Positions 3,839 through 20,000 of a stretch of 20,000 nucleotides of DNA are shown here, piece by piece. Below the pieces are notes generated by a model, which saw only the letters and a list, made by a program, of their open reading frames with translations, ran no database searches and was not told where the DNA came from. The position numbers and the translations under genes are program-made. The DNA is from an uncultured virus (IMG/VR IMGVR_UViG_3300042554_002206). Its lineage: Duplodnaviria > Heunggongvirae > Uroviricota > Caudoviricetes. The DNA lies in IMG/VR virus record IMGVR_UViG_3300042554_002206; one strand, written 5' to 3'. Numbering within the stretch: the first letter of the stretch is position 1; every line of letters starts with the position of its first letter.

Positions 3839-4074
3839 AGCTGCCTCCACGGTGGGTCACGTAGGAAAGCGTCAAGGTTTGCCGCTGCGCGTGTTTTTTT
3901 CATTGCTTCCCCAAAATCCCGCATCGACTGCTCGGCTTGCTTGACTGCCGGAGTCAATGCTTTGGCCATAGCAGCGCCGTTGGATAGAACCTGGGATGTG
4001 AGCCCGCAAAGTCGTGCGTGGTCAAAGTCGGCGAGGTTGGCCATTTTCGTGGCGCCAGGAAATTGATCGGTCAT
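3835..4074 (-). CDS. Hypothetical protein
   Basis: Lies within ORF 3835..4245. Start at ATG 4074 (MTDQFPG) or alternatively 4119. The stop is coupled to the next gene. Confidence 0.5.
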   Translation of the reverse strand: MTDQFPGATKMANLADFDHARLCGLTSQVLSNGAAMAKALTPAVKQAEQSMRDFGEAMKKTRAAANLDAFLRDPPWRQL

Positions 4075-4108
4075 GGTTCTAGCTTGTAGCGCCAGGGGTT
4101 TTCTGCTG

Positions 4109-9861: not shown

Positions 9862-10620
9862 TTAGGCGGTGCGACTCAAATTGTTGTCTGCTGCCATCAC
9901 GGCTTCTGGGTCCGCAAACCCAAAAAGCGGTAGAAAAAAGAACGGCAGACCCTTGGCACGCATGACGGCGGCACCTTGGATTTCATTGGTTGCCCAGGCC
10001 ACTGCCCAGGCCGCTTCCCAGGCCGCTGCCCTGGCCGCTGCCCTGGCCGCTGCCCTGGCCGCTTCCCTGGCCGCTGCCCTGGCCGCTTCCCAGGCCGCTT
10101 CCCCGGCCGCTTCCCCGGCCGCTTCCCAGGCCGCTTCCCCGGCCGCTTCCCCGGCCGCTTCCCAGGCCGCTTCCCAGGCCGCTGCCCCGGCCGCTTCCCA
10201 GGCCGCTTCCCAGGCCGCTGCCCTGGCCGCTTCCCTGGCCGCTTCCCCGGCCGCTGCCCTGGCCGCTGCTGTCATGCGGTCAAGGTGCCGCCAAAACGCA
10301 AGTACGCACTGCGCTTGGTCACCCAATACTTGTTGGGGTTTGCGAATAACGCTAGTCGGCGCACCATCTTGGCGGTCGTTCACGATGCGCAGCAAAACAG
10401 AATGAGCGCGACTGATACCAAAAAGCTCAGCCACTCGCTTGTCGGCAGCTGCCTGCGTGTAATCGCGCAAAGCTGCTGAAGTTACGCCATCCAAGAAATG
10501 CAGCGCCTGACCCTGTGCGCACATGCACCCATTTTCAGAGACAAGGCTGCCCTTGAAAGGTATGTTTCCAGGCCAATAATCAAGAAGCTCGTTAACAGTT
10601 TTGGGTGTAATAGTTGTCAT
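9862..10620 (-). CDS. Phage protein with Ala-rich tetrapeptide repeat (AAWE/AAGE/AARA), paralog B2
   Basis: Conserved N-domain (YWPG.IPFKGSLV..CMCAQGQ.LH) and C-cap (NEIQGAAVMRAKG..F.FLPLFGF) shared with 11145..11798. ATG 10620 aligns with the paralog start. Confidence 0.8.
   Translation of the reverse strand: MTTITPKTVNELLDYWPGNIPFKGSLVSENGCMCAQGQALHFLDGVTSAALRDYTQAAADKRVAELFGISRAHSVLLRIVNDRQDGAPTSVIRKPQQVLGDQAQCVLAFWRHLDRMTAAARAAAGEAAREAARAAAWEAAWEAAGAAAWEAAWEAAGEAAGEAAWEAAGEAAGEAAWEAARAAAREAARAAARAAARAAAWEAAWAVAWATNEIQGAAVMRAKGLPFFFLPLFGFADPEAVMAADNNLSRTA
9991..10270. repeat. 12-nt coding tandem repeat (ggccgct(t/g)ccc(a/c/t)), about 23 units
   Basis: Directly visible; encodes the tetrapeptide repeat on the - strand. 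Confidence 0.95.
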
Positions 10621-10657
10621 TTTGCAAAAAGGCAAGGTGGATTGGAAAGCGCAGCAA

Positions 10658-11144: not shown

Positions 11145-11798
11145 TTAGACAACTGCCATCACGGCTTCTGGGTCCGCAAACCCAAAAAGCGGCAGGAAGT
11201 AAAACGCCTGGCCCTTGGCACGCATAACGGCGGCGCCTTGAATTTCGTTTGAGGCCCCTGCGGCGGCCCATGCGGCGTCCCTTGCGGCGTCCCCTGCGGC
11301 GTCCCTTGCGGCGGCCCATGCGGCGGCCCCTGCGGCGGCCCATGCGGCGGCCCCTGCGGCGGCCCATGCGGCGTCCCTTGCGGCGGCCCCTGCGGCGGCC
11401 CCTGCGGCGGCCCATGCGGCGGCCCATGCGGCGGCCCTGTTTTTGTCGTCTATTTGGTCAAGATGCCGCCAAAACGCCAGCACTACATGCGACTGGTCGC
11501 CTAACACCTGTTCGGGATTACGAATGACGCTAGTCGGCGCACCATCTTGTCTGTCGTTGACAATTGCCAGCAAGGCTGAATGGGCGTTACTAATACCAAA
11601 AATCTCGGCGACCCGTTTGTCGGCGTCGCTCTGTTTAATATCGCGCAATTCTTCTACGCTTTTTTTATCCAAAAAATGCAGCACTTGGCCTTGAGCGCAC
11701 ATGCAGGACCCGTCTTCATTGACAAGGCTTCCTTTGAAAGGAATGTGGCCAGGCCAGTAGTCAAGAAGCTCTTCCACTGTCGATGGAGTGGTTTTCAT
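11145..11798 (-). CDS. Phage protein with Ala-rich tetrapeptide repeat (AAWA/AAGA/AARD), paralog B1
   Basis: Paralog of 9862..10620; ATG 11798 (MKTTPST). Confidence 0.8.
   Translation of the reverse strand: MKTTPSTVEELLDYWPGHIPFKGSLVNEDGSCMCAQGQVLHFLDKKSVEELRDIKQSDADKRVAEIFGISNAHSALLAIVNDRQDGAPTSVIRNPEQVLGDQSHVVLAFWRHLDQIDDKNRAAAWAAAWAAAGAAAGAAARDAAWAAAGAAAWAAAGAAAWAAARDAAGDAARDAAWAAAGASNEIQGAAVMRAKGQAFYFLPLFGFADPEAVMAVV
11255..11437. repeat. 12-nt coding tandem repeat (tgcggcg(g/t)ccc(a/c/t)), about 15 units
   Basis: Directly visible. Confidence 0.95.
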
Positions 11799-11845
11799 TT
11801 GAAATAACGAAGAATGGTGTGGTTTAGAAGGCGCAGCAAGATCAA

Positions 11846-12133
11846 TCACCGGCGCAACATGCTGGGGTTGCGCTCCGCAGCCGTGGGGCCCTGATCGTCG
11901 GGCTCGCTGTCGTACTGCTCTTGGGGCAGGTAGACGGTGATCCGGTAGGGGCGACCGTCCTTGTCGTAACTGGCTAGGTCAGCCTCAAGGTCAGCGAGCC
12001 ACGAGGGGTCCCCAACCTTGTCGTTTTCAATGAAGAAGTGCAGGTCGTCGGTGTCACCTTGCTCAATCTGCGTATCAGTGCAGAGGGGATGGCGACCGAT
12101 GGTGGTCAGGGCGTCGGCTAAGGCGGTGGTCAC
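11846..12133 (-). CDS. Acidic hypothetical protein ('gene A', intact copy)
   Basis: C-terminal ~80 aa are nearly identical to those of 10658..11107. GTG 12133 is chosen because a promoter-like sequence and the leader motif lie just upstream. The ORF track starts at 12226. Confidence 0.6.
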   Translation of the reverse strand: MTTALADALTTIGRHPLCTDTQIEQGDTDDLHFFIENDKVGDPSWLADLEADLASYDKDGRPYRITVYLPQEQYDSEPDDQGPTAAERNPSMLRR

Positions 12134-13928: not shown

Positions 13929-14576
13929 ATGGCAATCACCACCAAGGCCAAAACCCAGGCACCGGAAGAGGCAATCACCATCAAGGCACCCGATTTCAGG
14001 CTCATTGAGATCAAAATCAAGGGCACCAGTCCATTGGTGATCAACAGATTCAGTGCAAAAGCTATGGAGCAGATGAAAGCCACGCAGGAAGCGGGCAGCA
14101 CCGCCAGGGGCAAGAAGGTGCGCGAGGCGAAGGATTTTACCGCTCTTTTCGAGAGCGCCAAGCACGTCGCGGGTGAAGGATGGGAGGGTATCCATGCCGC
14201 TGCATTCAGGAACGGCGCCATTTCCGCCTGTCGTACCGTCGGGGTCAAAATGACCCACGCCAAATTGGCATTCAGCGTGTACGCCGATGGCTTTGACCGG
14301 GTTGACGGCGCCCCTCTGGTCCGGCTGACGGAGGGGGAAGCAGAGGAATGGACGGCCCCTACTCGTAATGCCACGGGCGTAATTGATCTACGCTGCCGTC
14401 CGATGTATCGGGAGTGGGCGGCAAACTTAAGAATCCGGTACGACGCCGGAATGTTTACTTCGGCCGACCTGGTCAACCTGATCAGCCGAGTGGGTCTTCA
14501 GGTTGGTATCGGCGAGGGGCGACCGGACAGCAAAAACAGCGCGGGACTGGGCTTCGGCCTGTTCGAGATCGTCTGA
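13929..14576 (+). CDS. Stand-alone RAMP/Cas7-like RNA-binding protein (215 aa), putative effector of the adjacent array (Vipr-like)
   Basis: RAMP hallmarks in order: first strand plus SPL (IEIKIKGTSPLVIN), helix GIHAAAFRNGAISA, and a terminal Gly-rich loop VGIGEGRPDSKNSAGLGFGLFEI. ATG 13929. No cas1/cas2 or other cas genes nearby. Confidence 0.8.
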   Translation: MAITTKAKTQAPEEAITIKAPDFRLIEIKIKGTSPLVINRFSAKAMEQMKATQEAGSTARGKKVREAKDFTALFESAKHVAGEGWEGIHAAAFRNGAISACRTVGVKMTHAKLAFSVYADGFDRVDGAPLVRLTEGEAEEWTAPTRNATGVIDLRCRPMYREWAANLRIRYDAGMFTSADLVNLISRVGLQVGIGEGRPDSKNSAGLGFGLFEIV

Positions 14577-14613
14577 TTGATCATGGCCCTGGCGATTGCT
14601 TTACGACTGCCAG

Positions 14614-15230
14614 GGCTTGGCATGGCTGGTTAGGCAAGGCGCGGCGTTCCAAGGTTTTGCAGGCATGGCTTTGCAAGGCTCGGCACGATGCGGCAAGGAC
14701 TGGCAGGCGTGGAACGGTCAGGTTGGCCCGGAAGGGCAGGCATGGCTTCGCAAGTCACGGCCTGTGCAGGCATGGCTGGCTAGGTGTGGTCGGGATAGTG
14801 CAAGGTACGGCGATGCAGGCAAGGCAAGGCCCGGAGAGCCACGAACAGGCGAGGCAGGCGAGGTATGGCGTTGCCAGGTCAGTCGCGGCAGGTGAGGCAG
14901 CTATGGATGGGCCAGGATCGGATTGGCAAGCGTGGCGTGGACCGGCATGGTTCTGCTCGGCACTGCAGGCACGGCGTGGCGAGGCCAGGTGCGTTCGAGG
15001 AACGGCATGGCACGGCAGGCATGGTTAGGCAAGGCAGCGATTGGTAGCGCACGGCAGGCAAGGCACGGTAGGCCGGGATTGGCACGGCAGGCATGACAAG
15101 GCACGGCGTGGACTGGAGAGGTGCGGCATCGCAGGCGTGGCTAGGACTGGTTTGTAAGGCATGGCAAGGAAAGGAAGGGCAGGCGTGGCCTGGATTGACG
15201 GCGCAAGGCACCGCAAGGCATTGCCGGCGT
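14614..15230 (+). repeat. Non-coding GGY-NN pentamer array with ~14-15 units, putative guide-RNA precursor
   Basis: 5-nt periodicity, e.g. ggcat gacaa ggcac ggcgt ggact ggaga ggtgc ggcat. GCAGG occurs at 14659, 14703, 14736, 14766, 14815, 14854, 14888, 14965, 15015, 15054, 15087, 15131 and 15179, with variant GCAAG at 14926. Confidence 0.88.
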
Positions 15231-15254: not shown

Positions 15255-15284
15255 GAATGGGGGCTTGAATGGGCCCCCTCATTC
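15255..15284 (+). other. GC-rich hairpin closing the array
   Basis: GAATG-GGGGC ... GCCCC-(CT)-CATTC inverted repeat without a U-tract. Confidence 0.6.
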
Positions 15285-15302
15285 CCTTTACCCACTGATC
15301 AG

Positions 15303-15860
15303 ATGAATTTCACCAAAGCCGAACCCGAATTCACTTTCAGGATCGAAGATGGCGATGAGGTGCTAGGCATTGATGCCCAGACGGCTGGCAGCGAACTAGA
15401 CCGCATTCGCCGCCGTGATGGCACGATCAAGCCTGCAGCGGTAGTCGATGAAGCCCGCCCCGAAGATGCGCCACTGCACCCGGCGTTTGAATGGCGCGAT
15501 CCGGTGGCGGCCGAGCAATGGCGGGAACATCAGGCCAGCACGCTGATCAAGGTGGTGCGGGTGGTGCCAAGCGCTCAACCGGAAGAGCGGGTGGCATCGG
15601 TGCGGCCGGTGACGCAGGCGATAACGCCAGTCGTTGAGCACTATGACCCGATGACCCGTGAAGTGCAGGAAGCGGTGGGGTCAGTGGTGGAGGCCAGCCG
15701 CAAGGTTGAGCAACTGAAGCTGCGAACCCAGCGGGCGGGTGATCGCCGCAGCATGATGGCCCTTGGCGTTGCGCTTGAGATGTTGCAAGAGGCTCGGGAA
15801 GCGCTCACAAACGGTCAGCTCTCAAGCACATGGGAGCGTGAACCGCAAAAGGTTGGGTAA
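15303..15860 (+). CDS. Conserved-looking phage protein, putative accessory gene of the RAMP-array cassette (185 aa)
   Basis: ATG 15303. ELDRIRRRDG.IKPAAVVDEARPEDAPLHPAFEW.D..AAEQWREHQA..LI resembles a recurrent phage hypothetical family. Co-oriented with the RAMP gene and the array. Confidence 0.8.
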   Translation: MNFTKAEPEFTFRIEDGDEVLGIDAQTAGSELDRIRRRDGTIKPAAVVDEARPEDAPLHPAFEWRDPVAAEQWREHQASTLIKVVRVVPSAQPEERVASVRPVTQAITPVVEHYDPMTREVQEAVGSVVEASRKVEQLKLRTQRAGDRRSMMALGVALEMLQEAREALTNGQLSSTWEREPQKVG

Positions 15861-19614: not shown

Positions 19615-20000
19615 ATGACACAAGCCTCATGCGCTGCTGAGCCGGCAGCACGGATCACGCGGCCGCGCTTTGCCCAGGTGCCGATCGCATTGCTCGAAGC
19701 CTGCGCAGATCGCAAGGGCACCCTCTTTGTTTACTCCTGGCTGTGGCACTACGCCGGCCAGAACGACCAGGCGTTCCCCTCGATCGCCCGGCTCGCCATG
19801 GAGTGCCGCATGAAGGATGACCACGTTCGAGCGGCCCTGCGGTGGCTTGTGGAAAACGGCTGGATCAGTCGTGTTGACCGAGTGGGGCAGACGGCGCTTT
19901 TTCATGTGAGATACGAGCAGACCCCTCCCCCAAAAAGGGGACCCCTCCCCCAAAAAGGGGACCCCCCAAAAGGGGGACCCCCCCCCTCCCCCAAAAAGGG
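19615..20000 (+). CDS. HTH-domain phage replication initiator, 5' part (runs off the right edge)
   Basis: Hand translation MTQASCAAEPAARITRPRFAQVP...VYSWLWHYAGQNDQAFPSIARLAMECRM...VRAALRWLVENGWISR. AFPSI..LA plus a wHTH is typical of phage initiators. No stop within the window. Confidence 0.8.
   Translation, partial: MTQASCAAEPAARITRPRFAQVPIALLEACADRKGTLFVYSWLWHYAGQNDQAFPSIARLAMECRMKDDHVRAALRWLVENGWISRVDRVGQTALFHVRYEQTPPPKRGPLPQKGDPPKGGPPPSPKK
19921..20000. repeat. Iteron-like repeats inside the initiator gene (probable origin)
   Basis: ACCCCTCCCCCAAAAAGGGG twice exactly (19921-19960), then two variants. Confidence 0.75.

Follow-up and report, generated by a model that had tools for sequence, protein, structure and literature searches.

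The locus lies in a 20,000-nt stretch of DNA, hereafter the window, which is phage DNA, as evident from its terminase, RusA, Rad52, SSB and Gp157 genes; a viral record (G001) carries an array identical to that of the window. On the + strand, vipr (13929-14576) is followed by a staggered array of GGY/NN pentamers (14614-15225), made up of a 14-nt lead-in and 15 units, and by a partner gene (15303-15860), the candidate accessory gene vap. VIPR is a CRISPR-related RNA-guided DNA silencer described in 2026 (10.64898/2026.04.26.720920). Several of its hallmarks are present here: location on a phage or prophage, a stand-alone RAMP protein, non-coding tandem GGY/NN pentamers beside vipr and an adjacent vap gene in a minimal locus. 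The source is a lake phage, probably with a cyanobacterial host, the host being suggested by the matches of SSB, thymidylate kinase and the integrase of a relative. Cyanobacterial plasmids account for all 15 of the best matches listed for the window SSB and Nodularia phages for 10 of 12 among the matches listed for thymidylate kinase, and the homologs of the integrase of one close relative include cyanobacterial records.

Other parts of the window hold further features. Two adjoining phage genes (12297-12785 and 12817-13197, - strand) each carry an RNA polymerase alpha C-terminal domain, in one of them fused to an NrdR-like zinc ribbon, and are possible modulators of host transcription beside the VIPR locus. 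A paralogous gene pair (9862-10635 and 11145-11849, - strand), each member within a duplicated block, contains 12-nt tandem repeats that encode Ala-Trp-rich runs. The short tandem repeats of 16-20 nt at the window end (19920-19983), rich in C- and A-runs, are possibly origin iterons.

The vipr product (215 amino acids, phrog_4652) is a RAMP of Cas7/Csm3-like fold with RRM core, thumb and G-loop, for which 4654 homologs were found. Its model (pLDDT 84.6) matches Cmr and Csm RAMPs with a best E value of 4.7e-5, and a profile of 76 homologs matches SUSP1 Vipr (PDB 36pp) with an E value of 7.9e-5. Of the residues with which SUSP1 Vipr binds GGY, R138, D177 and R179 align to R157, E196 and R198 of the window protein. 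The W178 position is G197 here, and glycine occupies it in 76 of 76 homologs, a count to be read with the fact that this motif also served as a retrieval pattern for the homologs; tryptophan is retained at the equivalent site in the Vipr of Quico, ODay and UmaThurman. A clade-specific G-loop insertion was considered as the reader of the array junctions and was rejected, as ODay and UmaThurman lack the insertion yet possess staggered arrays.

The candidate Vap (+ strand; 185 amino acids, helical; phrog_15946) is predicted to consist of an N-terminal helical domain and a C-terminal helical hairpin, and a homolog in the vap position is present at 66 of the 92 loci searched. The protein displays no Pfam or PDB family, its sole family being a PHROG of unknown function. 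A role of Vap as nuclease was discarded, the only matches being generic helical hairpins over residues 108-185, with the N-terminal domain barely covered.

The array parses into 104 five-nt, 20 four-nt and 2 six-nt steps. Among the pentamers, G occurs at the first position in 92, G at the second in 94 and a pyrimidine at the third in 85, with A at the Y position in 18 of 104, which makes the scaffold degenerate, more so than that of most arrays in the clade. NGC(A/T) accounts for 16 of the 20 short steps. Sixteen four-nt junction steps bound the 15 units, a junction being a step NGC(A>T/C) followed by GG (a hyphen marks the boundary below). The units abut with a 1-nt overlap, as in the staggered vrRNA arrays with 1-nt-overlapping processed vrRNAs of Yoon et al. 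2026, a comparison drawn from the legend of their fig. S18 rather than from the drawing (10.64898/2026.04.26.720920).

The first-pass annotation had divided the array at GCAGG, and its counts were reproduced: exact GCAGG occurs at 13 sites (14659, 14703, 14736, 14766, 14815, 14854, 14888, 14965, 15015, 15054, 15087, 15131 and 15179), the 13 spacings are as claimed once GCAAG at 14926 is included, 7 of them equal to 5n+4, and the units starting at 14662 and 14739 are identical in 14 of their first 15 nucleotides. GCAGG does mark units, but as a boundary it is too narrow, the true signal being NGC(A/T/C)-GG. As a junction map the list takes in one false site and misses three junctions that are not GCAGG, namely GCT-GG at 14624-27, GCT-GG at 14774-77 and GCC-GG at 15222-25. 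The false site, 14766, keeps the pentamer phase, and L002-L005 have TCAGG or TCAGA/T in its place; it therefore is not a junction. The relatives L002-L006 and L008 correct the map further: L006 reads GCA-GG at the 14624-27 junction, and GCAAG at 14926 is GCAGG in L002-L005. The estimate of about 14-15 separate units thus becomes 15 after correction from relatives.

The idea that a phase break marks the boundary held in part, as phase breaks also exist inside units. The length is 5n+4 in 9 of the 15 units, and the remaining six have one internal 4- or 6-nt step each; hence a phase break is insufficient, and the GC-N-GG sequence defines the junction. For two units the internal odd step is a normal pentamer with the same NN in an ortholog (unit 2 in L008, unit 5 in L006), which makes such steps tolerated scaffold defects. 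Figures for GC at the junction and GG after it depend on the parser and are partly circular, and were left out of the evidence.

The units, all on the + strand, are 33-50 nt long with 6-9 coding steps, the lengths of units 1 to 15 being 34, 44, 33, 39, 40, 39, 34, 38, 39, 50, 39, 33, 44, 48 and 44 nt. Unit 1 (14628-14661) has orthologs in L002-L004, L006 and L008 and is missing in L005. In place of unit 2 (14662-14705) a related unit occurs in L002-L005; its L008 counterpart is identical in 8 of 8 NN, the scaffold differing at four steps. Unit 3 (14706-14738), with an internal 4-nt step, has orthologs in L002-L006 and is missing in L008, while unit 4 (14739-14777), which contains the in-phase GCAGG and has a GCT-GG end, has orthologs in all six relatives. 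Unit 5 (14778-14817) carries an internal 6-nt step and has orthologs in L002-L006. Between units 6 (14818-14856) and 7 (14857-14890) L002 has an additional 44-nt unit, and units 8 (14891-14928) and 9 (14929-14967) meet at the GCAAG variant. Orthologs of unit 10 (14968-15017), which also has an internal 6-nt step, occur in L002-L005 and L008, that of L004 being two pentamers shorter. In the alignment, unit 11 (15018-15056) corresponds to two units of L004 and L005 fused into one, and the 48-nt gap within it takes in one junction. Units 12 (15057-15089), 13 (15090-15133) and 14 (15134-15181) follow, the last missing in L005. Unit 15 (15182-15225), with a GCC-GG end, has orthologs in L002-L006; in L002-L005 it is directly preceded by a 49-nt sister unit, the first 20 nt of which are almost identical to its own.

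It is extremely improbable that the GCAGG pattern arises as a side effect of pentamer composition together with random loss of single bases in a low-complexity repeat, or that the region codes for protein, and resampling and frame-breaking indels refute both. Dinucleotide shuffles yield 7.0±2.3 sites against the observed 13, a number that 24 of 2000 of them (1.2%, P 0.012) do reach, and open frames of 99-204 amino acids overlap the array. However, in-phase pentamer resampling, by which the first-pass annotation had proposed that its reading could fail, gives a mean of 1.9 and a maximum of 10, so that 0 of 20,000 runs reach 13, and spacing this even is found in 0 of 20,000 step-order shuffles of the window. 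The coding alternative is contradicted by indels of 43, 44, 49, 5 and 10 nt, which break any frame, and by the fact that no frame is kept across the seven arrays.

The same grammar extends across the clade. An array was found at 81 of the 88 loci parsed (L001, L007, L045, L091 and L092 being left out as duplicates, cut or weak), and 71 remained after loose dereplication. In these 71 arrays NGCA occurs in 483 of 669 four-nt steps versus 1212 of 5073 five-nt steps, a count in which the fourth base of the steps had not been scored by the parser. Gaps of 7-13 steps make up 86% of 526, as compared to 29% (22-35%) in 1000 shuffles. With dereplication made stricter, a 5n+4 length is found for 83% of 468 units, the median being 49 nt. 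The same steps are found in the cultured phages Quico, Donkeykong, LastJedi, ODay, UmaThurman and Cy-LDV1; the two tracts of LESphi2 are devoid of them, and the parser fails to detect the SUSP1 tracts, so that SUSP1 is no control.

Clean staggered arrays lie beside vipr in the mycobacteriophages Quico, Donkeykong and LastJedi (L170:2113-2357, L453:19504-19853 and L457:1117-1353) and in the Gordonia phages ODay and UmaThurman (L454:2095-2260 and L455:2083-2406), part of the array being annotated as a hypothetical protein in four of these five. In cyanophage Cy-LDV1, two staggered arrays flank the gene in the vap position (L171:3149-3338 and 3936-4096). The longest array, at approximately L028:2571-4102, covers 1.5 kb with 31 junctions and uses GCT, GCA and GCG about equally. 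At L015:3525-3833 an identical non-GG pentamer ends every unit, a fixed boundary longer than elsewhere.

Comparison of relatives for unit gain, loss and NN change, which the first-pass annotation had recommended, reveals that units are gained, lost and fused as blocks. The seven arrays comprise 31 unit families in nearly conserved order. Among five close arrays, all five long indels (43, 44, 48, 48 and 49 nt) remove exactly one junction each, and three short indels in L004 are whole pentamers gained or lost. One long gap fuses a unit start to the end of the next unit, resulting in window unit 11, and two other long gaps fall between units that share the same start; LastJedi is likewise without two whole units that Donkeykong has. 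Four or more consecutive NN are shared by 17 of 1946 unit pairs within an array, versus 0.11% between arrays and 0.16% in shuffles, a 5-8-fold excess over the controls, and the two units are neighbours in 7 of the 17 pairs. The whole-unit indels and shared tracts support the earlier suggestion of unit duplication, slippage and recombination as the source of guides. Recombination in a uniform repeat would also produce whole-unit indels, provided that selection kept nothing but the spacing.

Within 18 unit families the last NN is variable in 13, the next-to-last in 8 and the third-last in 1. Variable columns number 9 of 142 for core NN versus 37 of 213 for the scaffold (P 0.002), each column being counted once as the genomes are kin. 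That the junction GC never varies follows from the way the units were split and is no evidence. At the level of sequence comparison, the junction rule, the conservation of junctions, the turnover of whole units and purifying selection on core NN are thus demonstrated.

A leader hairpin (14585-14616, + strand) folds with a z of -2.4, 5 of 200 shuffles being as stable, and keeps its arms in L002-L005. A GC-rich hairpin (15255-15285, + strand) with a predicted stem, whose sequence is kept in L002-L006 and L008, is a candidate for a single 3' end structure; the 86-nt segment containing it is no stabler than shuffles (z -0.7). No sigma-70 promoter was found on the + strand. Small parts of the locus occur in 16 lake metatranscriptomes, and in the four examined the contigs lie on vipr and vap parts and none on the array, contigs being unable to show RNA ends or absence.

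It is conceivable, if rather doubtful, that the array stays one long RNA in which the 4-nt step is only where one segment of Vipr filament stops and another is nucleated, giving up to 15 independent targeting segments. All comparative results fit this as well, and the region is devoid of a per-unit tail, a ribozyme or an Rfam family (one weak chance match in Rfam). Of five single units, of which four folded (z -0.6 to 1.6), none is stabler than its shuffles, a single hairpin lies at either end of the whole array, and no nuclease fold was found for Vap, the N-terminal domain of which was barely covered. Against a single RNA, the fig. S18 legend places processed vrRNAs at such boundaries, and other VIPR types yield separate RNAs of about 100 nt (10.64898/2026.04.26.720920). 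RNA sequencing confirmed only the ribozyme and single-RNA types, the staggered type not being among them (10.64898/2026.04.26.720920). We consider it reasonably probable, though far from certain, that the staggered vrRNA array of the window belongs to a phage VIPR system and that its units are separate guides renewed by recombination or slippage. Against this reading stand the target scans described below and the units of 6-9 pentamers as compared to 9-16 in type II, devoid of a 3' tail, as well as the degenerate scaffold and the glycine at the SUSP1 W178 site.

The search for targets covered viral, metagenome and local sequence, with the genomes of cyanobacterial hosts, the likeliest pool, outside its scope; six viral scans with window or relative units, one metagenome scan and the local scans gave no target above chance, their matches either equalling shuffled controls or failing to converge. 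In the local scan of the 15 units against 81 sequences the best matches equalled those of shuffled controls. The same was true of the five whole phage records when 69 unit messages were run against these and about 150 other loci, in which the lower skip-1 mean arises because the loci had been fetched with those same patterns. Skips of 0, 1 and 2 gave no target in local scans, nor was a self-target found there. Exact viral matches numbered 37 for unit 2, 26 for unit 15, 14 for unit 10, 59 for unit 13, at least 117 for unit 8 (80 examined) and 18 for the sister unit of L002-L005, falling in scattered genes with counts near chance; a Quico unit had 14, and a unit of L083 matched 0 of 151 genomes. 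A 261-kb record was rejected as target, since two units match it exactly but the whole record averages 2.48 versus 2.51 mismatches, i.e. no enrichment.

Some matches amount to weak leads. Those of unit 15 in metagenomes, at least 120, fall mostly in one enzyme motif, presumably that of amidase/GatA. In 8 of 120 integrases of cyanophage type the unit 15 core fits with 11 of 12 nt in the best case (P 0.007, uncorrected for 30 tests), and an integrase arm domain is hit by 1 of the 14 matches of unit 10. The unit 2 core fits a terminase motif in 8 of 150; among rival Vipr proteins it also fits a motif in 17 of 120, the phage's own scoring 9 of 12, whereas at the DNA level 0 of 82 genes reach 11 there. 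Unit 2 fits two gene families equally, which indicates that chance is enough for a 12-nt core to fit conserved motifs, and aggregate tests on integrases, terminases and Vipr display no enrichment. The own vipr of the window (14235-14252) has Val at residue 106 in place of the clade consensus Phe/Tyr. At this site 17 of 120 homologs are a better fit to the unit 2 core than the phage's own gene, and the departure could be self-avoidance or chance.

The lack of a target under skips 0, 1 and 2 in local scans would also fit units that act as Vipr decoys or sponges, or that use a different skip or RNA targets in place of the one-skip DNA code, and the degenerate scaffold and the changed W178 equivalent point the same way. 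Such roles are nevertheless improbable: core NN are conserved above the scaffold, as expected when they pair with a conserved target, the equivalents of R138, D177 and R179 are kept as R157, E196 and R198, and the lack of a target concerns viral, metagenome and local sequence.

For separate guides, the following course may be proposed. The array is probably co-transcribed with vipr, and one Vipr subunit would bind each pentamer, the NN pairs reading double-stranded DNA with a one-base skip, by extension from the VIPR of SUSP1 and P. fulva, for which the accessible texts report that Vipr binds the pentamers and that the code skips one base (10.64898/2026.04.26.720920; 10.64898/2026.04.26.720927). 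The NGC(A/T/C)-GG step would break the 5-nt register and set the limits of one 6-9-pentamer guide. Most likely such a guide is freed as a 33-50-nt RNA through a cut at or beside the junction, the enzyme being either Vipr or a host RNase that acts at points where the filament loses register. Judging from conservation, specificity would reside in the first 5-6 NN after the junction, the last 1-2 pairing weakly or not at all. By analogy, the targets are likely competing phages or integrated elements of the cyanobacterial host. No Cas1-Cas2 would be needed for the repertoire to change: unequal recombination or slippage between near-identical scaffolds deletes, duplicates or fuses units in register, as genome comparison shows.

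A bolder version, which we hold to be speculative and on the unlikely side, is that the tail-less guide is anchored at its 5' junction, that Vipr recognises and cuts GCA-GG, that the target is read 5' first and that the scaffold serves as a Cas1-free memory. If true, this would be a minimal, self-maturing and evolvable multi-guide system foreshadowing Cas6-type processing, with a reading polarity opposite to that of type II, and in-register recombination of the scaffold would create new chimeric guides.

The maturation of staggered arrays and the origin of new guides are left open in the accessible portions of the VIPR texts. This locus and its relatives provide a junction rule, a prediction of the important bases and examples of unit gain, loss and fusion, and the presence of the same arrays in cultured mycobacteriophages and Gordonia phages makes the question testable in laboratory hosts. 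If tail-less units of 35-50 nt work, very compact multiplex silencing cassettes would follow.

Among known systems, Class 1 CRISPR-Cas (type III Csm3/Cmr4 backbone) shares with the locus the RAMP fold and a precursor of several guides, from which recombination removes units and in which it shuffles them. It differs in that the window has no array of direct repeats and unique spacers, the region displaying just a 10-nt period, its specificity lies in interleaved dinucleotides, and no Cas1, Cas2 or Cas6 occurs among the 13 window proteins scanned. Type II VIPR (SUSP1, P. fulva prophage) has in common a homologous RAMP, with residues that align to the RNA-binding R138, D177 and R179, and the pentamer code. 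According to the accessible texts, its RNAs have 9-16 repeats and a structured 3' tail each, whereas the window units have 6-9, are tail-less and abut (10.64898/2026.04.26.720927; 10.64898/2026.10.15.759431). Pairing in type II starts from the 3' end, near the tail in SUSP1, as far as the accessible text goes, whereas in the window the conserved NN are 5' and the 3' NN drift; the partner proteins differ as well, SUSP1 Vap1 displaying no similarity to the candidate Vap.

The word 'staggered' is absent from the accessible portions of 10.64898/2026.04.26.720927, 10.64898/2026.10.15.759431 and 10.64898/2026.10.21.760802, and a literature search, with subscription journals mostly outside its scope, found no further VIPR paper. 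Neither a junction motif nor unit lengths, a host, an indel pattern or a conservation gradient is given in the accessible text and legend of Yoon et al. 2026, though the drawing may contain some of them. The closest known system is the staggered VIPR described there (10.64898/2026.04.26.720920), which, in the part of the source available, has in common with the window a phage vipr and vap, abutting GGY/NN units overlapping by 1 nt and the absence of CRISPR repeats; the staggered architecture itself is already published, and the comparative detail is new.
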